In this document: piece by piece, positions 4,405-19,576 of the stretch
Layout of the letters: each line of letters begins with the position of its first letter
Position numbering within the stretch: position 1 is the stretch's first letter
Assembly (NCBI GenBank): GCA_050250375.1
Contig: JBFWOS010000002.1
Location: forward strand, 374,345-438,344
From: Candidatus Omnitrophota bacterium
GTDB lineage: Bacteria > Omnitrophota > Gorgyraeia > Zapsychrales > Zapsychraceae
Direction: 5' to 3'
DNA: 64,000 nucleotides
Notes under the pieces: model-generated
Seen by the model: the letters and a program-made list of their open reading frames with translations, nothing else
Databases searched by the model: none
What the model was told of the DNA's origin: nothing
Made by a program: the position numbers and the translations under genes

Positions 4405-5543
4405 GTATTGATGTAAATAAAATCAAGGTGCTTTTCGTTCATCCCAACAATAAACTCACCGGCCAGGAATTCTCGCTGATTGAGCGGATGAGGGCGTTAA
4501 GAAAGTTCGATGTGTGGTGCGAATTGCTTTTGCCGGAAGAAGGGGATTTCAGCCGGCTGGTGGGCGAGAATGATTTTCCGATCCATTATTGCGAGATGGA
4601 CCGGTTAAAAAAGTTAAATCCGTTTCCGTATTTAAGAACTCTGAAACGGATCCATAAAATCGTTGCCGACCACAAACCAAGCCTGATTCATTGTTCGGGA
4701 ATATATCCGAACCATTTCTGCCTTCCGGTCGCGCGCTTTAATAACCTGCCGATTATCGGCCAGGTGACAACGGATGTTTACAATGAATACGATATCAGCT
4801 CTAACTTCGTCAAGAAAATGGATTTGATCATCACCTGTTCGCTGGCCGCCAAACATCATCTGGAAAAAATGGTTGAAATCGACAAAGATAAAATTATCTG
4901 TATCTACGACGGTATTTCGGAAAATAACCGGGATTTTTCCAAGGAAGAGATCGGTAAGCTGAGAGAGGAATTCAAGGTGGGGGAGGATGACAAGGTTGTC
5001 GGGCAGTTATCGGAGATCATTCCCCGTAAAGGCTGTGAATATTTTATCGAGATGGCGTACAAGGTTAAACAGTTTTTCCCGAAAGTTAAATTTTTTATTG
5101 TCGGAAAAAATCACGGTGATGAGTATGAAAGAAAACTGCGGGAGCAGATCAGGTCGTTGAAACTGGAGAAAGATGTGATCCTGACCGGGTTCAGAAAAGA
5201 TTATTACGCGTTTTTGCAGATGTTTGATGTCAGTGTGCTGGCTTCCCTGGCTGAAGGATTGGGCCGGGTCATTGTCGAAACACAATATATGGCCAAACCG
5301 GTGGTGGCAACCGCGGTGTCCGGGAATGTTGAGGCGATTGAAGACGGCAAGAACGGTATGCTGGTCCCGCCGCAGAATCCGGAAGAGCTGGCGAAAAAGG
5401 TCACCGAACTTCTGAACGATCCGGAAAAAGGCAGGACGCTGGGCGCCTGCGGTTTTATATCGGCCAAGAATACATTCAGTCTGGCGAAACACGCCAGCAC
5501 CTTAAAAGAAATGTATATCAAATTGTTAAAGGAATATCGATAA
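4401..5543 (+). CDS. GT4-family glycosyltransferase
   Basis: C-terminal GT-B motifs (VLASLAEGLGRVIVETQYMAKPVVATAVSGNVE). GTG start overlaps the upstream stop (GTGA), with GGAGG 11 nt upstream. Confidence 0.78.
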   Translation: MSIDVNKIKVLFVHPNNKLTGQEFSLIERMRALRKFDVWCELLLPEEGDFSRLVGENDFPIHYCEMDRLKKLNPFPYLRTLKRIHKIVADHKPSLIHCSGIYPNHFCLPVARFNNLPIIGQVTTDVYNEYDISSNFVKKMDLIITCSLAAKHHLEKMVEIDKDKIICIYDGISENNRDFSKEEIGKLREEFKVGEDDKVVGQLSEIIPRKGCEYFIEMAYKVKQFFPKVKFFIVGKNHGDEYERKLREQIRSLKLEKDVILTGFRKDYYAFLQMFDVSVLASLAEGLGRVIVETQYMAKPVVATAVSGNVEAIEDGKNGMLVPPQNPEELAKKVTELLNDPEKGRTLGACGFISAKNTFSLAKHASTLKEMYIKLLKEYR

Positions 5544-5564
5544 GAGAGATAAAGGTGACGAGTG

Positions 5565-6263
5565 ATGAATAAAACATCCATATTAATCCCGACAAGATTT
5601 AATAACCGTTGGCCGTTGGAACTGACGTTTCAGACGATCCGGAAATATACAAAATGCCCGTATGAGATCATCGTTGGTGACGCGGGGATGGAGCCCGAAG
5701 CGCTGGAATTCGTCAAGGCGCAGAAGGATGTCCAGATTTGTCCTTGTCCGGATCCGATCCGGCCTAAAGATACGCTGGCCCGGTTTGCCCAATCTCCTTA
5801 TTTAATGTTTGTTCATGACGACATCCAGGTGCTCAAGGATGGTTGGCTGGAGCGCAGGATTGAATTGATGGAATCGGATCCGCGGGTCGGGGTAGTCGGT
5901 GAAATGAGCCACAATTACCTTGAAGGCTGGCGCTGGAAAAGATATTTTACGTTTTCACCGATTCATAAGCGGTTTTTTCCGCTGGGAATGCTGGTCCGCA
6001 AGAAGACCCAGGACCATCTCGAGCTGAAATGGGGGATTGAACGGGGATTTGACACCGGCGGTATTGCGTATCTGCAATTCTATAAACAGAAAGACTGGAA
6101 ATATAAAAAATATTTGTTCGGACAGGATATCAAACATTGGGGGCAGATGACCTGGGTGTTAAAGGAACGCAAACACACAACGCTGAATCTAAAGGAATTA
6201 CAAGATGAACGGCAGGTCAAGGTGAATATGATCAAAGAACTGCTGGCCAAGAAACAATATTAA
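5565..6263 (+). CDS. GT2-like glycosyltransferase (divergent)
   Basis: N-terminal SILIPTRFNN...EIIVGDAG and an HDD motif resemble a GT-A fold, but it is short and divergent. AAAGGTGA RBS lies before the ATG. Confidence 0.45.
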   Translation: MNKTSILIPTRFNNRWPLELTFQTIRKYTKCPYEIIVGDAGMEPEALEFVKAQKDVQICPCPDPIRPKDTLARFAQSPYLMFVHDDIQVLKDGWLERRIELMESDPRVGVVGEMSHNYLEGWRWKRYFTFSPIHKRFFPLGMLVRKKTQDHLELKWGIERGFDTGGIAYLQFYKQKDWKYKKYLFGQDIKHWGQMTWVLKERKHTTLNLKELQDERQVKVNMIKELLAKKQY

Positions 6264-6276
6264 GAATCTGAAAACC

Positions 6277-7215
6277 ATGAATGACATCCGACATCCTTTA
6301 GTCAGTATCGTTACGCCTACCTTTAACCGCAGCCGTTTTATCGATCGTCTGGTTAAAAATGTGCTGGCGCAGACGTATCAGGATTTCGAACTCGTCCTCG
6401 TGGATGACGGATCTACTGACAATACCCGGGAGTTGGTTGACCGGTGGATTAAAGAGAATCCCGGCCGTATCCAATATGTCTATCAGCCGAACCAGGGGTC
6501 GGGAGCGGCGCGTAACAACGGGATTAAACAGGCAAAAGGTAAATATATTGCCTTTCTCGATTCTGATGATGAGTGGACGCCGGACTATCTTGACAAAATA
6601 ATGACGGTATTGGAAAAAGGTGAATTTCAATGGACCGTCACCGGTGCCCGGCGTATCGATATCGGCAAGGACGGCCGTGAGCTGGATACGAAACTGATCC
6701 GTTGTCACCTGCAGGAGTTCAGCCATTTTTTTAAACGGGAATTAAACGTATATGAAGCGTTATTGACCGGAAATGTGGTCGGTGAAACTTCACGGATTGC
6801 CGTCCTGAAACAGGCGCTTTTAGCGGTGGGCGGTTTTCGGGACCATTTGAAACTCAGCCAGGATTATGAATTATGGCTGAGGCTGGCCAAAGCCGGCTAC
6901 AAATTGTTTATAACGGATGAACCGCTGGTCCTCTACCGTAAAAGCGTGGACAGCGTCACAAAAACACGCCTGGTTGAAGGTTTGCGTTACGGGTTTGAGA
7001 TCATCTGCGAATACAGCCGGGACGCGGTGAAACTGGATCCGATGTACCGGAAATTTTATGGCGAGAAATTGTGGGGATATGCCCGTGACATTCTTCATCA
7101 GCCGAAGAGGGACTATATTTTGATTCTAAAATGCATGATCAAAAGCTTGATGTTTGATTTTAATCTGACGAGAATATTTTCTTCATTAAATACTAACATG
7201 AATGTATCCAAATGA
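6277..7215 (+). CDS. GT2-family glycosyltransferase
   Basis: Classic GT2 N-terminus VSIVTPTFNRSRFIDRLVKNVLAQTYQDFELVLVDDGSTDNT, with a DSDDE motif. Confidence 0.82.
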   Translation: MNDIRHPLVSIVTPTFNRSRFIDRLVKNVLAQTYQDFELVLVDDGSTDNTRELVDRWIKENPGRIQYVYQPNQGSGAARNNGIKQAKGKYIAFLDSDDEWTPDYLDKIMTVLEKGEFQWTVTGARRIDIGKDGRELDTKLIRCHLQEFSHFFKRELNVYEALLTGNVVGETSRIAVLKQALLAVGGFRDHLKLSQDYELWLRLAKAGYKLFITDEPLVLYRKSVDSVTKTRLVEGLRYGFEIICEYSRDAVKLDPMYRKFYGEKLWGYARDILHQPKRDYILILKCMIKSLMFDFNLTRIFSSLNTNMNVSK

Positions 7216-7979
7216 CCGATGATAAAATTATATTGATGTACCACGGGATTACGGAAGAAGGCTTGATGCCGCCTTCCGAACGTGAGGTCGGCGCCGATCT
7301 TTATGATGTCAGGGTTGAAGACTTTTCCGCCCAGCTTGAATTGATCCGTAAAAAAGGGCTGGGTGTCAAAAAAATCGAAGAGGCCGGCACCAATGACATT
7401 GTCATCACCTTTGACGATGGTGAGTTTAATAATTTCAGTCTGGCCATGCCGTTGTTAAAACAGCACCAGTTCCCGGCGTATTTTTTTGTTATTACCAAGA
7501 GAGTCGGCCGTCCGGGTTATGTGCGGATGGAAGAAATTAAGGAGATGGTAAAGCAGGGCATGATCGTCGGTTCACACGGCATGAGTCATGAGGCGCTAAC
7601 CAACCTGAAAGACACCCTGCTTAATGAAGAACTGTCGGCGTCCAAGAAATATCTGGAACGGAATCTGGGCATTACCATTAATGATCTGTCGATCCCGCGG
7701 GGGTTTTGTAATGACAAGGTGCTGGATATGGCCTACGCCGCCGGTTACAAAAATGTATTTATTTCCGGACGGCCCAAAGACCTGGTCAATACGCTTTGTC
7801 ACAGCCGGGTGGCCGTGAAGAAAAACTGGGATCTTAAGCGGTTTGAGATGGCTTTAGACCGGCAGGTTCCGATTAAGGAAACGCTGACGGAGAAGACCAA
7901 AAATTTCAGTAAGCTTATTTTACGGGAAAACGGATATAACTGGATACGCAGCACATTATTAAAATTATTTAAAGGCTGA
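7212..7979 (+). CDS. polysaccharide deacetylase (NodB homology domain; PEP-CTERM-locus type)
   Basis: ITFDDGEFNNF...VGSHGMSHEAL motifs of the carbohydrate esterase 4 / NodB domain. The position inside an exosortase locus matches the PEP-CTERM-locus deacetylase subfamily. Confidence 0.75.
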   Translation: MTDDKIILMYHGITEEGLMPPSEREVGADLYDVRVEDFSAQLELIRKKGLGVKKIEEAGTNDIVITFDDGEFNNFSLAMPLLKQHQFPAYFFVITKRVGRPGYVRMEEIKEMVKQGMIVGSHGMSHEALTNLKDTLLNEELSASKKYLERNLGITINDLSIPRGFCNDKVLDMAYAAGYKNVFISGRPKDLVNTLCHSRVAVKKNWDLKRFEMALDRQVPIKETLTEKTKNFSKLILRENGYNWIRSTLLKLFKG

Positions 7980-7999: not shown

Positions 8000-9748
8000 A
8001 TGGCGAAATTGTTATGTTTGATGAATAACCGCAATGAAGCGTTTCCGCAGAAGGCGGTTGACGCGTTGAGTTACAACAAGGATTGGGAATTCCATTGTTA
8101 TAAAGGCGGCATGGTTTATATGGCCGCGCTGGATCTTCCCTTTAAGAATGTCAGTGATTATTGGCTGGAGGATGATCGTTATGTCCTGATGGTTGATGGA
8201 GAGATTATGTCCTGGAAGGATGAGCCTCAGGATCCTTCAACCGCGCAAAAGCTCCTCAATTTATATCGTTCCAAGGGGCCGGATATGGTCGATTATCTCA
8301 ACGGCAACTTTACTTTGTTCATTTTCGATAAACGGGAAAAATCTTTATGGGTCGCGAACGACCGGATGGGGCTAAGGCCGCTGTATTATTTCGAATACAA
8401 CGGAAAATGTTGTTTTTCATCGGAAGTAAAGGCGTTATTGGCTGATGAGGAATTCCCGGGGAAGTGCAATCTTCAATCAGTCCTTGATTTGCTGACCTAT
8501 GAATACGTCCTGGAAGACCTGACGCTGGTTGAAAATATCTTTGTCTTTCCTTATGCGTCAACCGCCCTGATTGACTCCCGCACGCAGAAACTGGTCCCGC
8601 AGCGTTATTGGGATTTTAATTATCAGCGGGTAGACCAGGCTGAATTGACCGACCGGTATATGGAACAGTATCTGGGTGTGTTCACGCAGGCGGTTGAACG
8701 CACGATGAAAGGGACGTATGCGCCGGTTGGATTGCCGCTCAGCGGAGGCCTCGATTCACGGCTGATTGCCGCGGTCATAGATCGAAGATATTTTCCATTG
8801 CATACATTCACCTTCGGGGAAAAAGGATGTGATGATGTAAAATACGCCCAGAAAATCAGCCGTATCCTGGGTGGAAGTCACCATTATATCCCGATCAAAC
8901 ATGAAGAACTGGGTTCTTTTTTTGAAAAAGGCGTTTCATACAGCGACGGGATGTTTACCTGTCTGCATTATCATTATCTGAATATGACGGATGAACTGGC
9001 CGCGCATGTCAAGATCGCACTCGACGGAATGGCCGGGGATGTTTTTCCCCGCCGGATGTATTCCTATCTTGAGGGGACAGATGTCAACGCCGCCTTTAAA
9101 GCCTTTGATACCTTTGGAGAAAATTTAAGGAGCCGGATTTTTAAGAAAGAATATGCCGGGGATCTTGCAACAGCCCGGCAAAGATTTGACGGGTTATTTG
9201 ACCGTGTGGCCAGGGCCTGTCCGGTGAGCCCGGTTGATTATCTCAATATAACCCAACGGCAGCGAAAGTTTATCAATTACGGCAAGGTCGGGAAACGCAA
9301 TTATGTTGAGATGCGGATGCCGTTTCTCGACTACGATTTTATGGATTTTTGCCTGACGATGCCGCTGGATTTCCGTTTAAACGGCAAACTTGTCAAAAAT
9401 ATTTTCAGGAAATATTATCCGGCCCTGTCCCGCGTTCCGAAGGCTGATGCCGGTCCGCTTTTTCCGAATCGAATTCAGCAGGCGGTTCATTGGAGGATGC
9501 AGGCGTTGAAAACCAAGCTTGGGATCAATTCAAGTTATGCGGATTATAAAAAATATTTCAGGACATTTTTAAAGGGGTTCATCCACGGACAACTTACGTC
9601 CGCAGAATTTAGACGGGTCCCGTATTTCGATCATCAGGAAGTGGGTCAACTGCTGGATGAGCATTTCTCCGGGCAGCAGAATTATGAAAAACAAATCGCG
9701 GCCTTGCTGACTGTTGCCATCTGGTCCAAACAATATTTTAAACAATGA
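8000..9748 (+). CDS. asparagine synthetase (AsnB)-like amidotransferase, exosortase-locus associated; N-terminal Cys nucleophile absent
   Basis: PP-loop SGGLDS motif (LPLSGGLDSRLIAAV), plus RDxxGxxPLYY and SExKAL motifs shared with AsnB. The N-terminus is MAKLLC rather than MCG. Confidence 0.72.
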   Translation: MAKLLCLMNNRNEAFPQKAVDALSYNKDWEFHCYKGGMVYMAALDLPFKNVSDYWLEDDRYVLMVDGEIMSWKDEPQDPSTAQKLLNLYRSKGPDMVDYLNGNFTLFIFDKREKSLWVANDRMGLRPLYYFEYNGKCCFSSEVKALLADEEFPGKCNLQSVLDLLTYEYVLEDLTLVENIFVFPYASTALIDSRTQKLVPQRYWDFNYQRVDQAELTDRYMEQYLGVFTQAVERTMKGTYAPVGLPLSGGLDSRLIAAVIDRRYFPLHTFTFGEKGCDDVKYAQKISRILGGSHHYIPIKHEELGSFFEKGVSYSDGMFTCLHYHYLNMTDELAAHVKIALDGMAGDVFPRRMYSYLEGTDVNAAFKAFDTFGENLRSRIFKKEYAGDLATARQRFDGLFDRVARACPVSPVDYLNITQRQRKFINYGKVGKRNYVEMRMPFLDYDFMDFCLTMPLDFRLNGKLVKNIFRKYYPALSRVPKADAGPLFPNRIQQAVHWRMQALKTKLGINSSYADYKKYFRTFLKGFIHGQLTSAEFRRVPYFDHQEVGQLLDEHFSGQQNYEKQIAALLTVAIWSKQYFKQ

Positions 9749-9754
9749 TTCATT

Positions 9755-10921
9755 ATGGTTGTTAACGGTATGAAATTTTTATTCTGGTTTTTTATGTTCC
9801 TCATTGCGTATTGTTATTTTTTTTATCCGGTTCTGTTGAGAGTTTTTGCGCGGCTGGTTCCCAGGAAAATTAACAAACAAACTATAACTCCGTCGGTATC
9901 GGTTGTTATTTCAGTCTGGAACGAAGAGGACGTCATCGAAGCCAAGCTGAACAATTTTTTAGCCCTGGATTATCCGGCAGATCAATTTGAAATCCTTATC
10001 GGATCGGACGGATCAACCGACCGGACAAATGCGATCATCAGGCAGTTTCAGGATCAAAGGATCCGCCTGGTTGAGTTGAATGACCGCAAAGGAAAAATGG
10101 CGACGCTGAACCGTCTGGTTGCGCTCGCGAAAAATGAAGTCATTATTTTTACGGACGCCCGGCAGACATTTGAACGTAATGCGATCAGGGAATTGGTCGC
10201 CAATTTTGCGGATCCCACGGTCGGATGTGTGAGCGGGGAGTTGATTTTTTCAAGTAAAGAAGGGGGGACGGCGCGGGGGATCAACCTGTACTGGAATTAT
10301 GAAAAGTTTATGAGGGATTGTGAAAGCCGGATCCATTCCATGCTGGGAGCGACCGGAGCGATTTACGCCATCCGGCGGGAACTGTACAGCGAAGTGCCGG
10401 TCGAAATAGTCCTGGATGATGTTTATATTCCTTTTAAGATTATCCAAAAAGGGTACCGCGCCATCTTTGACGGGGCCGCCAGGGCTTATGATGAAGTCGC
10501 GGACAGTCCCCGGGAAGAGTACAGGCGCAAGGCCAGGACGTTATTCGGGAATTACCAGATTTTCAAACGTTTCACGGGTTTGTTCAATCCGTTTAGCAGT
10601 CCGGTCGCCATCCAGTTTTTTTCGCATAAGTTTTTAAGGGTTATTGTTCCGTTTCTGATGATTGGAATTTTTTGTCTTAATATCGCGCTGGTTTATGATC
10701 CGTTTTACCGGATGGTGCTGGTGTTGGAAATTGTCTTTTACGGCATGGCCGTAACAGGCGCCTTGGCAAGACACCAAAAGTATGGTATTCTCAAACTTCT
10801 TTCCAGGGTCTGCTATGTGCCATATGTCTTTTGTCTGCTGAATTTTTCAGCGCTGATTGGTTTTATAAGGTACATTGGTTCAAAACAAACTATAACCTGG
10901 GAAAAGGCAAGGGCTCAATAA
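9755..10921 (+). CDS. membrane-bound GT2-family glycosyltransferase (synthase-like)
   Basis: N-terminal TM, then SVVISVWNEEDVIEAKL...ILIGSDGSTDRT, DAR and QxxRW-like region and C-terminal TM helices. Architecture resembles processive GT2 synthases. Confidence 0.7.
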   Translation: MVVNGMKFLFWFFMFLIAYCYFFYPVLLRVFARLVPRKINKQTITPSVSVVISVWNEEDVIEAKLNNFLALDYPADQFEILIGSDGSTDRTNAIIRQFQDQRIRLVELNDRKGKMATLNRLVALAKNEVIIFTDARQTFERNAIRELVANFADPTVGCVSGELIFSSKEGGTARGINLYWNYEKFMRDCESRIHSMLGATGAIYAIRRELYSEVPVEIVLDDVYIPFKIIQKGYRAIFDGAARAYDEVADSPREEYRRKARTLFGNYQIFKRFTGLFNPFSSPVAIQFFSHKFLRVIVPFLMIGIFCLNIALVYDPFYRMVLVLEIVFYGMAVTGALARHQKYGILKLLSRVCYVPYVFCLLNFSALIGFIRYIGSKQTITWEKARAQ

Positions 10922-10923
10922 TT

Positions 10924-11757
10924 ATGGAAAAACTGACCAGTTTTGTTAAATCTAACCGGAAAATACTCTTGTCATTTTTTGTCATGGCGGTCGTGTATTT
11001 TCCGACCTTGATCTGGATGTGGGACCGGTGGTGGGTCAGGGATTCTTATTATTCACACGGTTTTTTGATCCCGATTGTCAGTCTATACCTGATTTACCAG
11101 ATGAAAGACGAGCTTTCCAAGATCAAAGTTAAGGAATCACCCTGGGGCATGAGGATGGTTATCGCCGGCGTTTTGCTGCATCTTTTCGCGTCGCATCCGA
11201 ATATCCGTGTATTTTTTATATCGGGGTTTTCGATGATGTTTGTCGTGTCCGGGATAATTTTGTATTTTTACGGCGAGGAGATTTTTAAGAAAATTTCTTT
11301 TCCGTTAGCGTTTCTGGTTTTTATGATCCCGCTGCCATTGGTGGTCATCAATAAACTCAGCCTTCAGTTAAAGATGTTTGCGGCCGAGCTGGCGGCGATC
11401 ACGCTTAATAATATGCGGATTCTGGCAGTCAGGGAAGGGAGTATTATCCGGATGCGCCACGCGCAGGTTATTGTCGATGATGTGTGCAGCGGGCTGCGAT
11501 CGTTAATTTCGCTGGCAGCCCTGGGAAGTATTTTTGCTTATTGGCTGAAGGGGGCCACCTGGAAAAAATTGATATTATTTTTTTCCACCATACCGATCGC
11601 GATCATTACCAATATGTGCCGGGTGGTGGTCTTGTCCTGCATCAGTGAAATCTGGGGCACCGAATACGCCGACGGATTTGTCCATGACATGACCGGGTTT
11701 ATGGTGTTTGCGCTGGCATTTGTCATGTTATACACGGTAGGGAAATTGCTCGAATGA
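10924..11757 (+). CDS. xrtA: exosortase (XrtA/EpsH-like)
   Basis: Polytopic membrane protein with the exosortase catalytic-Cys motif DDVCSGLRSL. It sits directly upstream of an EpsI-like gene and in a locus with PEP-CTERM proteins. The ORF-track start at 10831 overlaps the previous gene; the ATG at 10924 follows its stop. Confidence 0.78.
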   Translation: MEKLTSFVKSNRKILLSFFVMAVVYFPTLIWMWDRWWVRDSYYSHGFLIPIVSLYLIYQMKDELSKIKVKESPWGMRMVIAGVLLHLFASHPNIRVFFISGFSMMFVVSGIILYFYGEEIFKKISFPLAFLVFMIPLPLVVINKLSLQLKMFAAELAAITLNNMRILAVREGSIIRMRHAQVIVDDVCSGLRSLISLAALGSIFAYWLKGATWKKLILFFSTIPIAIITNMCRVVVLSCISEIWGTEYADGFVHDMTGFMVFALAFVMLYTVGKLLE

Positions 11758-12383
11758 AAAATAAAAAATTAATCTTCGTTGGCGTGCTTGTCATTATTTC
11801 AGGGATCGTGTCCTGGACCACTTATCTCAGGGAGTACATTCAGGAAGATACGGTCAACATTCACTCATTTCCCAAGGAAATAAACGGCTGGGTCTCCGAA
11901 GAAATCCCGATCTCGGATGTTGAATACGCGATCCTGGAAACCCGCAACGCGTTTGTCCGCCGGTATACAAATCCCCAGGGAAAAGAAGTGTATATGTTTA
12001 CGGTTTATTCGCAAAAAAACCGTAAGGTTTCCCATCCCCCGGAGGTGTGTTATACCGGAGGCGGGGTCCGGGTGTCCAGCAATGAGATTGACACCATTCA
12101 TGTGCCGGAGGGTAATCTTACGATCAAGGCCCATAAACTGGGCCTTGAACAGAAAAATTACAAGCAAATCGCGTATTACTGGTTCAAGGTCGGGAAGTCT
12201 TTTACCCCCAGTTACTTCAAACAGCAATTGATGATTTTGACGAAAAATTTTGTCGGTAAGCCGGAAAGCAGTGCCCTGATCCGGGTCTCAGCGACCGTTT
12301 TAACGGATGAGGAAAGCGCCGTTGCGGATATCAAAGAGTTTACCGGTGTGATGCTCCCGCACATTTTTCAACACCTTCCTTAA
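11754..12383 (+). CDS. epsI: EpsI-family exosortase-associated protein
   Basis: About 209 aa with an N-terminal signal anchor. Its start overlaps the xrtA stop, which is the typical EpsH-EpsI gene pair arrangement. Confidence 0.6.
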   Translation: MKNKKLIFVGVLVIISGIVSWTTYLREYIQEDTVNIHSFPKEINGWVSEEIPISDVEYAILETRNAFVRRYTNPQGKEVYMFTVYSQKNRKVSHPPEVCYTGGGVRVSSNEIDTIHVPEGNLTIKAHKLGLEQKNYKQIAYYWFKVGKSFTPSYFKQQLMILTKNFVGKPESSALIRVSATVLTDEESAVADIKEFTGVMLPHIFQHLP

Positions 12384-12581: not shown

Positions 12582-12598
12582 TTGGCACGCATATTGCT
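12582..12598 (+). promoter_or_regulatory. sigma-54 (RpoN) -24/-12 promoter TTGGCACGCATATTGCT
   Basis: Exact match to TGGCACG-N4-TTGCW with GG and GC correctly spaced, about 50 nt upstream of the sugar-transferase ATG. A sigma-54-dependent activator is encoded at 18179..19576. Confidence 0.62.
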
Positions 12599-12648: not shown

Positions 12649-13503
12649 ATGACAAGAAAGAAGAAACAACTAGAAACAAGAAAAAGAATTTTAGCCGGTT
12701 TATTTGTGATGGTATTCGGCTTATGTGTGGCATCAGCCTGGGCAACGGTTTCATTCGTAAAACCTCAGGATGCTTCCCAATATATAGCGACTGCAGACCG
12801 ATCCGAGATCCCAGCTGATGTAACAGAAACAGCCAAAACACGGGCCCCGGAACCTTCAACAATGGCCCTTTTTGGCGGCGGTATCGTGGGTATGGTGATG
12901 AGTTTTATCCGAAGGACTTATGCGGCGGTCAAAAGAGTGTTTGACGTTGTGGCTTGTGTTGCCGGGGCGATCATCCTTTCGCCACTATTGATCCTGGCGG
13001 CGGTTTTGGTCAGGGTAACGTCCAAAGGCCCGATTATCTATTCGCAGACACGGGTCGGGAAAGACGGACAGCATTTCCAAATTTATAAATTTCGCACAAT
13101 GAGAGTTGATGCTGAAAAAAATACCGGTCCTGTCTGGGCGGCTAAAGATGATAAACGCTTGACCCCGGTCGGTAAATTTTTAAGAAAATCGCATATTGAT
13201 GAACTTCCCCAGCTTTTTAATGTGTTTAGAGGGGAAATGAGTGTGATCGGACCAAGACCTGAGCGGCCTGTTTTTGTCACCGAATTCAAACAGATTATCC
13301 CCAATTACGAAAATCGATTGGCGGTAAAACCCGGTATCACCGGTTTGGCCCAGGTCTGGCACCGGTATGATGAAACGATCCAGGATGTGAAGAAAAAGTT
13401 AAGATATGACCTCCTATATATCAGAAGGATGTGTTTCTGGGCTGACCTGAACATTATCCTCAGAACAGTTCGCGTTGTCATTACAGGGGAGGGAGCCCGA
13501 TAG
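12649..13503 (+). CDS. polyprenyl-phosphate sugar transferase (small PGT / EpsB-like 'bacterial sugar transferase' domain) with an N-terminal extension containing a PEP-CTERM-like motif
   Basis: C-terminal catalytic domain YKFRTMRVDAEKNTGPVWAAKDDKRLTPVGKFLRKSHIDELPQLFNVFRGEMSVIGPRPERP. The N-terminus has a signal anchor followed by PEPSTMALFGGGIVGMVMSFIRR. GAGGAG RBS is present. Confidence 0.82.
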   Translation: MTRKKKQLETRKRILAGLFVMVFGLCVASAWATVSFVKPQDASQYIATADRSEIPADVTETAKTRAPEPSTMALFGGGIVGMVMSFIRRTYAAVKRVFDVVACVAGAIILSPLLILAAVLVRVTSKGPIIYSQTRVGKDGQHFQIYKFRTMRVDAEKNTGPVWAAKDDKRLTPVGKFLRKSHIDELPQLFNVFRGEMSVIGPRPERPVFVTEFKQIIPNYENRLAVKPGITGLAQVWHRYDETIQDVKKKLRYDLLYIRRMCFWADLNIILRTVRVVITGEGAR

Positions 13504-13605
13504 ACAACACCTCATACATTACATCTTTAGGGAGATGTTTAATATAAAGATTAAAACAATGAAAAAAAACATAATCAAAAAAGTTCAAACAAGGGGAGTA
13601 GAAAA

Positions 13606-14485
13606 AATGAAGAAATTATTTTACGTACTTGCACTTGCTCTGACCGTTGCTTTACCGGCAACAGGGGCAATGGCTGATCCTGGCCCGTACGACACAACAA
13701 AATGTGCCGATAATAACGGTGGCGGTGTCTTTACAGCCTGCGAATCAAACAACACGGTTGATGTCTTTAATGCCATCAACAAGGTCTTTACAGACCGTGG
13801 TTTGGCTTCACCGGGATATACTGATAATGAAGGAACAGATGCCGTTCAATATGTTGCGCAGAACGAATTCTGGTCACAATTATCATCTGATGACTCATCA
13901 CAATTCGCTTTTATTTCGCTGACAGCGGGCAATTTAAACACCTTGGGTGTTTTTCCGGCTGGCGGTAATGCGGCAACCGATTCAACATTCTTTTCACTTA
14001 CTTTTACTGGTGAACAATTTACCGGTAATGGTACAATTGGTAATCCATATCCTGGTTTTACCAATCCGTTGAATAATGTTGATTTTGGTTTTTCACTAAA
14101 ATCAAATAATGAACCATTTTATACAAATATTCTTTCTTCAGTTCCTGGACAAAATGCTGATGGATTGGATCATATGCTGACTTTTGAATTGTCAGCCTTG
14201 GCTGGTCAAACCATCTATGTCAAATTGGATGGAAACAACGATGGGGACCTGGATGACGTCGAAGACACATTGGTAGAAATTGAACTGACCGATGAGACAT
14301 TCCTGATCGCCTGGGAAGATCTTTTTAATTCTTCTGCTGAGTTTGATTCTGATTACAATGATTCAATTTTCTTGGTTACCAAGATCAAACCAACAGACCA
14401 TGTCGTTCCTGAACCAATGAGTATGTTATTATTCGGAAGCGGTTTGGCCGGTTTAGTGGCTACTCGCCGAAGAAAAGTTTGCTAA
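13606..14485 (+). CDS. PEP-CTERM domain secreted protein (exosortase substrate)
   Basis: Signal peptide MKKLFYVLALALTVALPATGAMA; C-terminus VPEPMSMLLFGSGLAGLVATRRRKVC is a canonical PEP-CTERM sorting signal. AAGGGGAG RBS is present. The ORF-track start at 13475 has a long unconserved leader. Confidence 0.82.
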
Positions 14486-14566: not shown

Positions 14567-14848
14567 ATGGAAGTTTTAAAAAAGACAAAAACACTAAGAG
14601 CCTTATTTGCGGCAGCTCTTGTTCCATTCATCACCGCTTGTAATGGCGGTGGAGGTGGGGGTGGTTCAGCCCTTCTTGGCGTCGGCAGTTTATTTAGTGG
14701 CACAGGAGGCGGAGGGGAAGCCGGTCCAGGTTTACTCCCCGGTGGAGACCAAGTGGCTTCACTAACGAACCCGGAACCAGCTAGCATGTTACTTGTTGGA
14801 AGTGGAATGGCAGCGATGGCCTACTTTAACAGAAAGAGAAAGCAATAA
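14567..14848 (+). CDS. small glycine-rich PEP-CTERM protein (93 aa), possible lipobox
   Basis: C-terminus NPEPASMLLVGSGMAAMAYFNRKRKQ; signal peptide ending ITAC; poly-Gly tracts; GGAGGG RBS. Confidence 0.68.
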   Translation: MEVLKKTKTLRALFAAALVPFITACNGGGGGGGSALLGVGSLFSGTGGGGEAGPGLLPGGDQVASLTNPEPASMLLVGSGMAAMAYFNRKRKQ

Positions 14849-15127: not shown

Positions 15128-15991
15128 ATGAAAGAGAAAAAATCACAACCTAAAATTTTTACAATCCTGCGCTCATCCGTCAATACAATTTTCACGAATG
15201 ACGCCATCATTTTTCCATTCTTTGTCATTATATTTTTTCAACTGTTAATTTTGGAAATTTTGTATTTCATTCCGCAATGGCCGCTGAATGTCTTTTTCGG
15301 TCCGATCGTGGCGAAACTCTGGTCGGTTACCTATATGCATTATCCGTTTAATCTGGTACTATTGCCGAAATTATTTTATTATGCGCTAATCCCGGTTTAT
15401 ATTCTGTTGTCCAGTTTTTTGATTTGCATGGCGATTTCCGCCATTCTCATGATCAATAACGATGAAGAACCTAAAGTGGGGGTAATTTTCAAACGGCTGC
15501 TTCCTTCCTATATATATATCGTTGTATGTTCGGTGATCACATTTTTCTTTATCAAACTTTTTATGCAGGGTTATGACCTGATTTATGAACGGGCGATGAA
15601 TATCCGCTCCCAGGCTGGGCCGATTTACTGGCTTAAAGCAACGGTTGTTCAGGGGGCGCCTTATTTTAAAGTCCTGTTGAATGTGCTGGGAACAACCATG
15701 TTTGCTTATGTGTTTCCGCTGATTGTCATTGAAAAACGCAATGTGTTTACAGCCATCATCGAGAATTTGAAATATGTGATAACAGCCCCGATTAAGACAT
15801 TCCTCATTGTCCTTATCCCGACATTGTTATATATCCTTATTCTGTTATCCCGGGGGCATGTCCCGTTTGAAGCGGAAATCCCTGAAATGCGGGTGGTATC
15901 GATCGTGGTGAGTGTTTTGGTGATGGTTTTTATTGACGCGGTCATTTATACATCCATAACAACATTTTATTTAATCAGAAAAGGACAGTAG
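15128..15991 (+). CDS. polytopic integral membrane protein, function unknown
   Basis: 287 aa with at least 7 hydrophobic helices; no recognisable motif. Confidence 0.5.
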   Translation: MKEKKSQPKIFTILRSSVNTIFTNDAIIFPFFVIIFFQLLILEILYFIPQWPLNVFFGPIVAKLWSVTYMHYPFNLVLLPKLFYYALIPVYILLSSFLICMAISAILMINNDEEPKVGVIFKRLLPSYIYIVVCSVITFFFIKLFMQGYDLIYERAMNIRSQAGPIYWLKATVVQGAPYFKVLLNVLGTTMFAYVFPLIVIEKRNVFTAIIENLKYVITAPIKTFLIVLIPTLLYILILLSRGHVPFEAEIPEMRVVSIVVSVLVMVFIDAVIYTSITTFYLIRKGQ

Positions 15992-16888
15992 ATGAAGAAG
16001 GCCTATCTATTTTTATTCGCGATTTTACTCGGGGTTTTTGCTGTTCTGACGGCCATGGACTTTCGGGGGAATTATGCCTCTGAACGGACGTTATGGAGGA
16101 TTAATAATGTTTTCGCCAAGGCGGCCCGGGATCCAAAGATTATTCCGGAAGCAACCTTCATCCGGATCGTTAACCAGTATGAACAATTTATTAAAGATTA
16201 TCCCGATTCGACCTTGTTGCCGGTAGCCCACATCCTGATCGGCCGTGTGTATATGATTAAAAAAGAATTCGGGAAGGCCAGGGATATTTATGAGGAAGTT
16301 GTAAAGTTGTATCATGACAAACCGAATATCGCTGTGGAAGTGGTGGCTGATATCGGGAGGACGTACGCGTTGGAAGAAAACGTGAATGGTGTGATCGGAA
16401 ATTACAAACGGGTCATCCAGGATTATCCGACCACCCAGATAGGGCTTCAGGCGCCCATTTTATTGACTAAATTGTATTCGGTCCGGGGAGATTCTGTTCG
16501 GACGGAAGAGGCGTATAAACAGGCGGTCGAACATTATAAAAAATTAATTAATGATAATCCCAATGACCGGATCGAATTTGACGCGTTACGGTCGCTGGGG
16601 ACATTATATCTGACGGCCAATCAAAAAAGAAAAGCGGTGGAGACCTTCGGAAAGGTTCTTGTAAAATTTCCCCAACGGGAGTATTTGACGTCGAACAGAG
16701 TTACCACCCTTATTAAAACAATTAATACGGTTGCCATCGTTGATCTGAAAGATTATGATCTTCCGGTTTCGATTTATGAAGAATTTATCAAAGTCCATCC
16801 CGACCACCCGTTTGTGAGTTCATTTAAGGATATTATCGAAAGCGTCAAATTATTAAAAGACAGTAAATTAACGATTGATGGAAAATAA
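15992..16888 (+). CDS. secreted TPR-like helical-repeat protein
   Basis: Signal peptide MKKAYLFLFAILLGVFAVLTA; helical repeat composition resembles tol-pal YbgF-like or TPR proteins. Confidence 0.42.
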   Translation: MKKAYLFLFAILLGVFAVLTAMDFRGNYASERTLWRINNVFAKAARDPKIIPEATFIRIVNQYEQFIKDYPDSTLLPVAHILIGRVYMIKKEFGKARDIYEEVVKLYHDKPNIAVEVVADIGRTYALEENVNGVIGNYKRVIQDYPTTQIGLQAPILLTKLYSVRGDSVRTEEAYKQAVEHYKKLINDNPNDRIEFDALRSLGTLYLTANQKRKAVETFGKVLVKFPQREYLTSNRVTTLIKTINTVAIVDLKDYDLPVSIYEEFIKVHPDHPFVSSFKDIIESVKLLKDSKLTIDGK

Positions 16889-16905: not shown

Positions 16906-18192
16906 ATGAAATCAGCCATTGATGAGTTAAGCCAGGCAGAATTATTTCAGAAAATCGGTGACATTTGTGCGACAGTCAACACGGCTTTGGGAGAGAAAGA
17001 TTTACTCGACGTGTCGCTTAAAAAAATTATGGAATTGTATGGAGCGACCCGCGGTTCGGTTTTTATCATTACAGAGGCCGGCCACGAGTTGATGCTCAAG
17101 AGTTCTTTCGGTATGAAGATCCAAGAAAAAGAAAGTATGATTAAACAGATGGGGCAGGGAATCGTCGGCCGGGTTGCCCAGTTAAAAGAACCGATGTACG
17201 TGGACGATATCGCGAAAGACGGCCGTTTTAGCAATTTCAAGGGCCGGGGCAGTTATTCAACGCCTTCCTTTATCTGCGCCCCGCTGATGGTCAAAGACCA
17301 GCTGATCGGCGTGATTAACATCGCTGATAAAGAGACAGGCAACCGATTTAACGAGACCGACATGCAGCTGCTGGATTTTCTTACCACCCAGGTCGCATTA
17401 AACCACCGACGGATCCAGCTGCATCAAAAATTCAAACGCATCGTTAAAGAAAAAGAAAGTCTGAAAGACCAGCTCGGCCAGACCGACCAGGAAAAAAATA
17501 AACTTAAAAAGCAGATCGTCGTCCATGAAAAGCTGGCCACCATCGGCAAGCTCGCCGGCGGTATTGCGCATGAATTCAATAATCCGCTGGACGGAGTTAT
17601 GCGGTACACGAACCTCTGTCTGGACCATATCCAGGAAGATGAGGTGGTCCGCGGATATCTGATTGAAATCAAACACGGTTTGAACCGTATGGCCAATATT
17701 GTCCGCAACCTTCTGGCCTGTTCCCGGGAGGATTATCCCGCCCAGCAATTTGTCGAGTTGAAACAGGCGTTTGAGCATGCCCTGTCCGCGAAAATGAACG
17801 AAATATTACGCAAGAATATAGTTGTTGAACGGAATATTTCCCAGAGCATTCGTCCGATCCGGGATCTTGGCATCGAACGTATTTTTACGAATTTGATCAA
17901 TAACGCAGTGGACGCCATTGACCAGGGGGGGAAGATTTCCATGAAGGCCGAGATCCATACCCAGGTTCTTGTCATTTATTTTTCCGATACGGGGCGGGGG
18001 ATCAGTCCGGAGCATATCAGCAAGGTTTTCGAACCGTTTTTTACGACCAAGGATATCGATAAAGGCTGCGGGTTGGGTCTGACGATTGTCGGGGAAATTA
18101 TCAAATCGTATGAAGGAACCATTGATATTGAAAGTGAGGTAGGGGTGGGGACGGCTTATACCATTAAAATCCCGTTAATTGACCATGATTGA
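16906..18192 (+). CDS. GAF-domain sensor histidine kinase (PrsK-like partner of the sigma-54 regulator)
   Basis: N-terminal GAF domain, HisKA H-box (HEFNNPL) and HATPase_c N/G boxes (NLINNAVDA, DTGRGI, GLGL). Confidence 0.72.
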   Translation: MKSAIDELSQAELFQKIGDICATVNTALGEKDLLDVSLKKIMELYGATRGSVFIITEAGHELMLKSSFGMKIQEKESMIKQMGQGIVGRVAQLKEPMYVDDIAKDGRFSNFKGRGSYSTPSFICAPLMVKDQLIGVINIADKETGNRFNETDMQLLDFLTTQVALNHRRIQLHQKFKRIVKEKESLKDQLGQTDQEKNKLKKQIVVHEKLATIGKLAGGIAHEFNNPLDGVMRYTNLCLDHIQEDEVVRGYLIEIKHGLNRMANIVRNLLACSREDYPAQQFVELKQAFEHALSAKMNEILRKNIVVERNISQSIRPIRDLGIERIFTNLINNAVDAIDQGGKISMKAEIHTQVLVIYFSDTGRGISPEHISKVFEPFFTTKDIDKGCGLGLTIVGEIIKSYEGTIDIESEVGVGTAYTIKIPLIDHD

Positions 18193-19576
18193 TAAACGCG
18201 ACAACCAGAAATATAACATTATGGTGGTGGACGACGAGCCGCTGATCCGGGAATCTTTGTTCGAGATTTTCAAGATCGAAGGATTCCGGGTGCAGATGGC
18301 ATCATCCGCCGAAGAAGCGCTGAAAGTCCTGGAAAAACATCCGGCGGATATTATTATCACCGATTTGAAATTGCCGAGAATGAGCGGCCTTGAGCTGCTC
18401 CAGGAAGTAAAAAAGAATTATGAAAGAACGGAAGTCATCGTGATCACCGGGTACGGATCGATCGAGACGGCCGTAGAAGCCATGAAGATCGGCGCCTTTG
18501 ATTATATAACCAAACCGATCAATGACAGTGAGATTAAGCTTATTATCGGGAATATTGTCGGGAAACTCAGGCTGATTGAAGAAAACGTCGCTTTAAGGGG
18601 GTTGATCGCCAAGGACAAACGCAAATCGCTGGCCGGGATGATCGGTTCCAGCCAGAAAATGCAGGCGGTTTACAACATCATCGATTCCGTCGCGTCCACA
18701 AACGCCACGATCTTGATTACCGGAGAGAGCGGTACAGGTAAGGGGATGGTGGCCAAGGCAATTCATTATTGTGATGAAAACCGTAAAAATAAACCGTTTG
18801 TTGAAATCAGCTGCGGGGCGCTCTCGGAGACCCTGCTGGAAAGCGAACTCTTTGGGCATATGAAGGGGGCTTTCACGGGAGCGATCAAGGACAAAGAAGG
18901 GCGCTTTGAATACGCAAAGGGTGGAACAATCTTTCTCGATGAAATCGACGCGTTTTCTCCCAGCCTTCAGGTAAAACTGTTAAAGGTTTTGCAGGACGGT
19001 GTCTTTGAGCGGGTCGGCGATAATGTGACCCGCAAGGCCGATGCCAGGATTATCGTGGCAACCAACCAGCAGTTGACGGATCTCGTCGATGAAGGGACAT
19101 TCCGTGAAGATTTGTATTACCGGATCAATGTCATCGCGATCCAGATGCCGCCCCTGCGGGACCGCAAGGACGATATCAAAGTGCTGGTTGACTTTTTCCT
19201 GGATCTCTACAGCAAATCAAACAATAAGAAGATTTCCGGCGTTTCCGATGAAGTGATCAAGATGTTTAAGAACTACAATTGGCCGGGCAATATCCGTGAA
19301 CTGGAAAACGCCATTGAAGGGGCGGTGATTATGGCCAAGACCGAGACCGTTCAGAAACAGGATGTACCGAATTATGCCAAATTTGATGAAACGGAGATCC
19401 GGTCGACGGAGATTAAATCGTTAAAGAAGGCGACTGAACAACCTGAACGGGAGCATATTATTTCCATACTTAACGAATGTAATTGGAACAGGAACAAGGC
19501 TGCTGCTGCGTTGGGGGTTAACCGGACAACTTTATACAATAAAATGAAAAAATATCATATTCTGGATAAAAAATAA
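18179..19576 (+). CDS. sigma-54-dependent Fis-family response regulator (NtrC-type; PrsR-like)
   Basis: Receiver domain (VVDDEP...DLKLP), AAA+ sigma-54 interaction domain with GESGTGKG Walker A and GAFTGA motif, and a C-terminal Fis-type HTH. Confidence 0.88.
   Translation: MTMIDKRDNQKYNIMVVDDEPLIRESLFEIFKIEGFRVQMASSAEEALKVLEKHPADIIITDLKLPRMSGLELLQEVKKNYERTEVIVITGYGSIETAVEAMKIGAFDYITKPINDSEIKLIIGNIVGKLRLIEENVALRGLIAKDKRKSLAGMIGSSQKMQAVYNIIDSVASTNATILITGESGTGKGMVAKAIHYCDENRKNKPFVEISCGALSETLLESELFGHMKGAFTGAIKDKEGRFEYAKGGTIFLDEIDAFSPSLQVKLLKVLQDGVFERVGDNVTRKADARIIVATNQQLTDLVDEGTFREDLYYRINVIAIQMPPLRDRKDDIKVLVDFFLDLYSKSNNKKISGVSDEVIKMFKNYNWPGNIRELENAIEGAVIMAKTETVQKQDVPNYAKFDETEIRSTEIKSLKKATEQPEREHIISILNECNWNRNKAAAALGVNRTTLYNKMKKYHILDKK

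Follow-up and report, generated by a model that had tools for sequence, protein, structure and literature searches.

PEP-CTERM sorting signals stand at the C-terminus of their proteins "virtually without exception" (Haft et al. 2006, PMC1569441), and one gene of a Candidatus Omnitrophota bacterium raises the question of what such a signal might be doing ahead of an enzyme. The gene lies at positions 12649-13503 of the 64,000-nucleotide stretch of contig JBFWOS010000002.1 that was analysed here as a whole (the window). It encodes a protein in which a Pro-Glu-Pro (PEP) tripeptide, a hydrophobic helix and an Arg cluster are followed directly by a phosphoglycosyl transferase (PGT), the type of enzyme that makes the first lipid-linked sugar in the synthesis of an extracellular polysaccharide (EPS). 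The feature is real and conserved, and it constitutes at once a PEP-CTERM signal away from the C-terminus and a new PGT architecture. Based on the collective evidence, the protein is understood, in a reading that we hold to be probable, as a genuine PEP-CTERM protein fused via its Arg cluster to a small monotopic PGT, with the tag bringing the EPS-initiating enzyme to the exosortase and with cleavage probable but secondary. The arrangement suggests a physical coupling between the sorting of proteins and the initiation of the sugar polymer.

Is the internal motif a true PEP-CTERM module, and is the domain behind it a complete PGT? The 284-residue protein consists of four parts: a signal-peptide-like N-terminus, a variable linker of ~33 residues, the PEP-CTERM module (residues 66-89) and the small monotopic PGT (residues 95-278). 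On the DNA they are placed as follows.

12649..13503, plus strand: PEP-CTERM::PGT fusion gene, 284 amino acids with ATG start, from the open reading frame and the reading of its sequence
12649..12744, plus strand: residues 1-32, signal-peptide-like N-terminus, composed of MTRKKKQLETRKR, a hydrophobic core and A-W-A, with T next to it across the putative cleavage site
12745..12843, plus strand: residues 33-65, short segment, periplasmic in the predicted topology, with the conserved start TVSFVKPxDA and then the variable linker
12844..12915, plus strand: residues 66-89, PEP-CTERM module A-PEP-STMALFGGGIVGMVMSFI-RR (PF07589, TIGR02595)
12931..13020, plus strand: residues 95-124, re-entrant membrane helix of the monotopic PGT core (KR...ILS-P...TSKG), from conservation, AlphaFold and structure alignment
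12931..13482, plus strand: residues 95-278, Bac_transf catalytic domain (PF02397), its Asp-Glu dyad D184-E185 at nucleotides 13198-13203

The protein sequence includes ...TRAPEPSTMALFGGGIVGMVMSFIRRTY..., the PEP tripeptide corresponding to nucleotides 12847-12855, and a GAGGAG ribosome-binding site is found 4 nucleotides 5' of the ATG. NCBI holds a 100% identical protein under the name 'sugar transferase [Candidatus Omnitrophota bacterium]'. From the first helix to the PEP the stretch measures ~33 residues, shorter than the 45-residue linker given in an earlier reading of the DNA made from sequence only (the sequence-only reading).

Residues 66-89 match the Pfam model PF07589 (PEP-CTERM) with 22.9 bits, compared to a gathering score of 20.7, and the NCBIfam model TIGR02595 (PEP_CTERM) with 18.4 bits, compared to a cut-off of 16. 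The module is made up from P67-E68-P69, 18 mostly hydrophobic residues and R88-R89, with K95-R96 further on. The open reading frame, the motif and both model scores thus bear out the sequence-only reading, which had described a PEP, a hydrophobic helix and an Arg cluster ahead of the PGT. Among the hallmarks of PEP-CTERM membership, the succession of a near-invariant PEP, a hydrophobic helix of ~14 residues or more and a basic cluster is present, as is the co-occurrence with an exosortase; the extreme C-terminal position is absent, with 195 residues (the whole PGT) coming after the Arg pair. A regular expression for PEP, helix and basic residues finds three substantial frames in the 64 kb (105-344 codons from stop to stop), namely the fusion gene and the two PEP-CTERM genes downstream of it; a fourth match is a 69-codon stretch at 45036(-).

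Conservation of the module was analysed in an alignment of 54 homologues, 59-88% identical overall. P-E-P is kept in 53 of the 54, and PF07589 matches at E <= 0.01 in 53 of the 54 as well. E68, P69, F75, G76, G78 and Y91 are invariant, and A66, P67, T71, L74, G81, M82, F86, R88 and T90 are conserved to at least 90%. Mean pairwise identity amounts to 0.69 over the PEP-CTERM module (residues 62-91), compared to 0.20 in the N-terminal signal helix and 0.16 in the linker; it is 0.52 in the re-entrant helix and 0.76 in the catalytic domain. Nearly all of the best 120 relatives listed (59-88% identical, ~282 residues; from assemblies in NCBI, ENA, JGI and Logan) conform to the pattern ...RAPEP[ST]T[ML]ALFG[GS]GF[LI]GM..SF[VI]RRTY, and 4 of them have S/A-E-P-G. 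The sequence-only reading had named its own counter-case, a PEP lacking in the orthologs and a segment that is simply one of two plain transmembrane helices; the conservation just described, with the module at 0.69 against 0.16-0.20 in linker and signal helix and PF07589 found in all homologues except one, rules out an ordinary second transmembrane helix. What stands between linker and enzyme is a bona fide, strongly selected PEP-CTERM module adjoining a complete small PGT.

The enzyme part was recognised already in the sequence-only reading as a C-terminal sugar transferase domain, and PF02397 (Bac_transf) places it at residues 95-278 with an E-value of 1.8e-68 in Pfam. The PGT core opens with K95-R96, 5 residues past the Arg pair of the tag. 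Invariant in the homologues are K95, R96, D99, P112, D184 and E185, and the AlphaFold model has a helix break at residue 110, just ahead of S111-P112. Matches in the PDB are WbaP and PglC (E ~1e-32), with the alignment starting at query residue 89-94 and the re-entrant segment aligned with the start of PglC (chain residue 10) and with WbaP residue 274. The profile match, the Asp-Glu dyad and the re-entrant helix with its Ser-Pro break together place the domain among the monotopic PGTs. The model TIGR03025 (EPS_sugtrans, EPS polyprenyl glycosylphosphotransferase) is passed with 311.8 compared to 295.55, covering profile positions 208-445 only. With TIGR03013 (EpsB_2, the sugar transferase of the XrtA system), the EpsB-type family that the sequence-only reading had put forward for comparison, the score is 274.8 compared to 393.35 and only profile positions 252-443 of ~443 align, so the PGT is not a member of that family. 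The fusion gene is the only Bac_transf gene in the window.

At the other end of the protein, the first helix, described as a signal anchor in the sequence-only reading, looks more like a cleavable signal peptide, judged from its K/R-rich n-region, its h-region of ~15-18 residues and a conserved A-W-A site with T following. In the homologues, A30 and W31 are each found in 44 of 54, A32 in 53 of 54 and T33 in 39 of 54. Cleavage after A-W-A is suggested by the -3/-1 rule. A lipoprotein signal was considered and dropped; the Cys of an FGLC motif has Leu at -1 and is not conserved. AlphaFold gives a helix over residues 3-35 and predicted local distance difference test scores below 50 over residues 41-76, consistent with disorder; the overall order in the model is helix, disordered linker, helix and Ser-Pro break. 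Mean pairwise identity in the homologues is 0.47 over residues 27-41, which take in the start of the presumed mature peptide, and falls to 0.16 in linker residues 42-61.

How far does the architecture extend beyond this protein and its close relatives? A profile of residues 60-134 (tag plus re-entrant helix) was compared with 1.84 billion representative proteins and gave 96 matches at E <= 1e-10. The matches that cover the PEP part come in three forms, distinguished by the cargo that precedes the tag. The short form has ~34 residues of cargo in the family of the window protein, and in locus L010 a signal peptide plus only ~8 residues before the PEP. The long form carries 130-260 residues (P0131, P0142, P0152, P0159, P0215 and P0161, the last with a PKD domain); each of these proteins has a confirmed Bac_transf domain. 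Four proteins are above the gathering score of PF07589, namely P0131, P0142, P0152 and P0139 (the last of 311 residues and without a signal peptide); P0159 and P0215 stay below it, and P0161 has no match. The third form is without cargo: the proteins start MPEP and are represented by 8 clusters at 50% identity plus loci L011 and L012. In L011 a stop codon is located two codons upstream of the MPEP Met, which is therefore the real start.

The long forms connect the internal motif to C-terminal sorting domains. Residues 5-268 of P0142 and a stand-alone PEP-CTERM protein from L010 (6676-7455) align from end to end (31% identity, E 1e-21), through signal peptide, domain and tag. It follows that the internal motif shares its origin with genuine C-terminal sorting domains, and that the long forms are whole PEP-CTERM proteins to which a PGT was appended. 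Homology of the module to true sorting signals is thus supported from three sides, that is, model scores above curated cut-offs, the P0142 alignment, and the synteny with exosortase-EpsI and cargo genes considered below. The N-terminal domain of P0131 is not a recent duplicate of the neighbouring PEP-CTERM proteins, since only the tag aligns with them. In a neighbour-joining tree of catalytic domains, calculated without support values, the short- and long-cargo fusions form one clade apart from the sampled unfused PGTs, and two MPEP forms (P0160, L011) fall elsewhere. The constant part across all forms is the PEP-helix-Arg-PGT junction; the cargo is dispensable and the junction is not. What is selected is this junction and not the cargo, and the window protein is no isolated case but belongs to a broader group of PEP-CTERM::PGT fusions.

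Three further observations relate to the range of fusions. P0131, P0134, P0142, P0152, P0159, P0215 and P0161 have in common a highly basic insertion of 25-35 residues within the PGT domain (e.g., RVGEDRRRSGERKKVKKCKEERRKIASPGRLF), which the window protein does not have. In L011, an open reading frame at 5196-5582 (+), between epsI and the cargo-less MPEP-PGT gene, is PilZ-like by eye (...RRHRRLDLSVPVLFTV...GGLYFRT...) and hints at an input from cyclic di-GMP in this lineage. Lastly, P0144 of the representative library (2500 residues) has at least 10 PEP-CTERM modules in one uninterrupted open reading frame, and each Arg cluster runs directly into a signal-peptide-like hydrophobic stretch with an AxA site, as in RRRRAGRK-AIALAALLTLVAANESAHA with ATLSS past the site. 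It looks like a PEP-CTERM cargo polyprotein with helices running alternately out-to-in and in-to-out, and if so, it would provide a further example of PEP-CTERM signals in internal positions. Of the long forms, P0215 carries an Elusimicrobiota annotation; P0142, P0159 and P0160 are on contigs shorter than 3 kb, from which no gene context is available.

Does the fusion gene reside where an exosortase could make use of its tag? The window shows the following neighbours.

10924..11757, plus strand: exosortase, 277 amino acids from ATG (the longest open reading frame starts at 10831), of no named subtype (PF09721, E 1.4e-65)
11754..12383, plus strand: EpsI (exosortase-associated, DUF3485), TIGR02914 83.2 compared to 42.8, PF11984 E 8e-30
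13559..14485, plus strand: canonical PEP-CTERM cargo protein, 308 amino acids, ending ...VPEPMSMLLFGSGLAGLVATRRRKVC, PF07589 26.1 compared to 20.7, TIGR02595 23.6 compared to 16
14567..14848, plus strand: small Gly-rich PEP-CTERM protein, 93 amino acids, PF07589 22.5 compared to 20.7, TIGR02595 20.7 compared to 16
15128..16888, plus strand: polytopic membrane protein of 287 amino acids (15128-15991) and then a TPR protein, which travel with the PEP::PGT module
16906..19576, plus strand: GAF histidine kinase and sigma-54-dependent response regulator (PrsK/PrsR-like pair), from Pfam families on the identical locus L086

The placement directly behind "xrtA-epsI" in the sequence-only reading stands as regards an exosortase and EpsI upstream, with an intergenic region of 265 bp between epsI and the fusion gene; the subtype does not, the score for XrtA (TIGR03109) being 180.3 compared to a cut-off of 208. 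The exosortase passes the generic model TIGR02602 (181.4 compared to 105.55) and is below the cut-offs also of XrtD (200.8 compared to 400), XrtB, XrtC, XrtV and XrtW. It has the motifs CSGLRS, NMCR and HDMTG, which we take to represent the Cys/Arg/His triad of the exosortase family. The exosortases of L010 and L011 likewise fit no named subtype, and the window enzyme is possibly of an undescribed subtype associated with PGT-borne tags. The two PEP-CTERM substrates that had been read just downstream are confirmed as such, both above the cut-offs of the two models.

The gene order of the window is GT2, exosortase, EpsI, PEP::PGT, PEP-CTERM protein(s), 287-residue membrane protein, TPR protein, GAF histidine kinase and sigma-54 response regulator, and most of it recurs in the independent loci L001-L009 at ~60-66% protein identity. 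Within L001-L012 and L086, exosortase and EpsI are directly upstream in every PEP::PGT locus whose contig reaches upstream, among them L001-L006 and L008-L012. This includes L010-L012, from metagenome-assembled genomes (MAGs) named Planctomycetota or Planctomycetia, in which the exosortase is only 30-44% identical and still upstream together with EpsI. Canonical PEP-CTERM cargo genes are located beside the fusion in these same loci, except in L011 and L012. Around the untagged PGT homologues (L013-L085), an exosortase-like match is found in L050 only. The contig scan does not amount to a census, and some MAG names (e.g., 'Lysobacterales', given to a contig of 13 kb) may stem from errors in binning.

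NCBIfam gives no match for the membrane protein and a weak, PrsT-like one for the TPR protein. Homologues of both were found by tblastn in L003, L004, L007, L009 and L010 (the membrane protein of L010 at 9108-9980), and in L088 and L092 a protein of ~280-290 residues without a Pfam match, followed by a TPR protein, occupies the same position. The pair stays with PEP::PGT even in the Elusimicrobiota locus that has no exosortase nearby. The 280-290-residue membrane protein may be an unrecognised component of the system. Upstream of the exosortase, the window has an AsnB-like amidotransferase (8000-9748, +), matched weakly and below the cut-off by TIGR03108 (the amidotransferase of the XrtA system), and a polysaccharide deacetylase is encoded near the exosortase (7212-7979, +). 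Gene types such as these have been discussed in connection with sortase-like systems, where their products might make a linking sugar modified with an amino acid (PMC7468200).

The intergenic region ahead of the fusion gene contains a further element.

12583..12597, plus strand: sigma-54-type -24/-12 promoter element, TGGCACGCATATTGC, 52 nucleotides upstream of the ATG

No second exact TGGCAC-N5-TTGC occurs in the 64 kb, and ~0.06 are expected per shuffled window. An exact match is present 60-90 nucleotides upstream of the orthologous gene in L001/L006, L003, L005 and L009, and a match with one mismatch is present in L007, L008, L010 and L011. Sigma-54 sites upstream of PEP-CTERM genes, under the control of PrsK/PrsR, were described by Haft et al. 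2006 (PMC1569441); here the signal is borne by the PGT fusion gene rather than only by cargo genes, and a sigma-54 activator and a GAF kinase are encoded downstream in the same locus. In one Omnitrophota genome (L001/L002, 6239-7630), a HipBA-type toxin-antitoxin cassette has been inserted between epsI and the fusion gene, leaving the sigma-54 site before the PGT gene undisturbed.

From these elements a mechanism can be proposed. The K/R-rich N-terminus would serve as a Sec signal peptide, probably cut after A-W-A, and the segment of ~33 residues past it would sit in the periplasm. The PEP tripeptide would be positioned at the outer face of the inner membrane, the Gly-rich helix would span from outside to inside with R88-R89 holding the cytoplasmic side, and the re-entrant helix and catalytic domain would come directly next, in the cytoplasm. 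That the PEP faces the periplasm is predicted from the positive-inside rule and from the need of the PGT core to begin on the cytoplasmic side. In this topology, the PEP-helix-Arg module would be shown to the neighbouring exosortase as it is in an ordinary substrate. The exosortase would recognise the module, and the tag, by docking there, would recruit the enzyme of the first lipid-linked EPS sugar to the exosortase, possibly making the PGT dependent on it. The sorting of proteins and the start of the polymer would be brought together at one membrane site under common sigma-54 control. Cleavage at the PEP is likely and would shed a short periplasmic peptide, leaving behind a PGT anchored by its helix.

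Several observations weigh against this interpretation. The MPEP forms are at or below the model cut-off, with TIGR02595 giving 15.2 compared to 16 for L011 and no match for P0160. A small PGT in L050 (Gemmata) is found ~3 kb from an exosortase fragment and is without a PEP tag, from which it follows that the tag is not required for every exosortase-linked PGT system. No exosortase is found within 9 kb in L092 (Elusimicrobiota, P0215) or L093 (P0161). Across 10 loci, the PGT tag is not significantly nearer to the cargo tags of its own locus (0.44 compared to 0.42; permutation p = 0.10). Lastly, even the exosortase chemistry on ordinary substrates is described as 'thought' or 'expected' in the literature (PMC12188702; PMC7468200).

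Does the tag then need to recruit the enzyme at all, or could the protein be an ordinary substrate and nothing else? The exosortase would cut at the PEP, the released peptide or larger domain would be the product, and the PGT would be a leaving group that results from gene fusion and keeps no lasting association with the exosortase. In its favour, a normal substrate has the same topology, the forms with long cargo are PEP-CTERM proteins in full, and the conserved start of the presumed mature peptide, TVSFVKPxDA (identity 0.47), suggests a role for the peptide. We nonetheless consider this explanation doubtful: the cargo varies from 0 to ~260 residues while the PEP-helix-Arg-PGT junction is constant, the MPEP forms and L010 with its ~8 residues have no meaningful product to release, and most of the linker is unconstrained (0.16). 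A proposal that goes beyond recruitment is of small probability in our view as well. Exosortase and EPS-initiating PGT would form an obligatory membrane complex through the PEP-CTERM helix, the flipped lipid-linked glycan from the same PGT would be the acceptor for exosortase cargo, and the PGT-borne peptide would be the first cargo. If true, it would reveal the acceptor and the mechanism of the PEP-CTERM/exosortase pathway and make the fusion proteins a fourth architectural class of monotopic PGTs.

Alternatively, the tag could be a relic, left when a PEP-CTERM gene was fused by read-through to a PGT gene downstream of it, and now be maintained as an extra transmembrane anchor only, unseen by the exosortase. 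PEP-CTERM and PGT genes adjoin in these loci, so that fusion by loss of a stop codon would be easy; some of the fusion loci have no exosortase nearby; and the PGT tags show no significant same-locus co-variation with the cargo tags. A plain anchor should, however, drift like the signal helix (0.20), yet the module is at 0.69 with invariant E-P and F-G-x-G. The PEP is kept even when it has become the very N-terminus, and synteny with exosortase-EpsI extends across distant lineages. These points make the relic improbable.

Still further down in likelihood, and in our judgement quite unlikely, is a regulated target or pseudo-substrate, in which cleavage switches the PGT on or off (as a zymogen or through a degradation signal) or in which the tag throttles cargo processing until EPS synthesis starts. 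The data in favour of recruitment support it too, and cleavage would give one product, helix-RR-PGT, irrespective of the cargo. Control is known to be exerted at PGTs, as exemplified by a response regulator that is reported to activate an initiating PGT (PMC12802240). No sign is found in the sequence of a periplasmic part inhibiting the cytoplasmic active site, and cargo-less forms could not be 'activated' by the loss of four residues. An artefact of assembly or gene calling (e.g., through a frameshift that merges a PGT gene with a small PEP-CTERM gene) has nothing specific in its favour apart from the origin of the sequence in a MAG, and its probability is negligible given an uninterrupted open reading frame in more than 120 clusters at 90% identity from NCBI, ENA, JGI and Logan, with the same junction and a good ribosome-binding site.

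Recruitment of the PGT through its tag, as the preferred interpretation, has importance for a long-standing association. Exosortases have been linked to EPS since 2006 by gene neighbourhood only, and both the substrate acceptor and the reason for the company of EPS genes are unsettled (PMC1569441; PMC7468200; PMC12188702). With a sorting tag hard-wired into the enzyme that makes the first lipid-linked sugar, physical coupling between the two has its most direct evidence to date at the level of sequence. The finding shows, moreover, that a signal of the sortase type need not be C-terminal in order to function or, at the least, to be retained. The fusion also offers an experimental handle, for the remainder after cleavage would be a 22-kDa cytoplasmic enzyme that can be tagged and assayed, compared to the stub of ~25 residues left from normal substrates. 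The host organisms are uncultured (Omnitrophota, Elusimicrobiota and planctomycete-labelled MAGs). Full-text literature searches found no paper that joins PEP-CTERM/exosortase with PGT or priming-enzyme terms or that describes the fusion, though an earlier mention may exist. Both Pfam domains are already marked in databases on 25 of the 120 listed relatives; the architecture is thus visible there and, as far as we have found, undiscussed, so that the novelty lies in its recognition and interpretation and not in its detectability.

How the fusion relates to known systems is best seen from its two halves. On the side of sorting, it shares with the PEP-CTERM/exosortase (EpsH) system (Haft et al. 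2006, PMC1569441; TIGR02595, PF07589) the tripartite signal of PEP, Gly-rich hydrophobic helix and basic cluster, an N-terminal signal peptide (here signal-peptide-like) and the sigma-54 promoter, as well as the neighbourhood of exosortase, EpsI, EPS glycosyltransferases, AsnB-like amidotransferase, TPR protein, histidine kinase and sigma-54 regulator. It differs in that the signal is C-terminal there, whereas here 195 residues of a cytoplasmic enzyme extend past the Arg pair and the cargo is only ~34 residues. The same logic, with a motif, a helix and a basic tail holding the precursor for a dedicated enzyme, is found in LPXTG/sortase, PGF-CTERM/archaeosortase and GlyGly-CTERM/rhombosortase. 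To our knowledge, sortase-type signals of these kinds always end the protein, and the leftover helix is discarded; in the fusion, by contrast, the leftover would be a working enzyme.

On the side of the enzyme, the TIGR03013 (EpsB_2) proteins are likewise priming enzymes of the Bac_transf family tied genetically to an exosortase locus. They differ in having ~443 residues, of which the last ~190 profile positions (252-443) align here, and their link to the exosortase is one of neighbourhood only, unlike a sorting tag built into the enzyme. PglC (PDB 8E37, 8G1N) matches in core and re-entrant helix (query 94-282 compared to PglC 10-189, E ~1e-32) and has the Asp-Glu dyad and the Ser-Pro helix break in common. 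PglC starts at the re-entrant helix, whereas the window protein is extended at its N-terminus by 94 residues, in which two segments cross the membrane. WbaP (PDB 8T53) also places extra transmembrane segments N-terminal to the same catalytic core. In WbaP these belong to a four-helix bundle with a cytoplasmic nucleotide-binding-like domain, compared to one cleavable-looking signal helix and one PEP-CTERM helix here, and the N-terminus of the window protein has no homology to that of WbaP. Current classification divides the monotopic PGTs into small, large and bifunctional enzymes and has no class with a sorting-signal extension (PMC11626204); the PEP-CTERM::PGT fusion adds an architecture outside that scheme.

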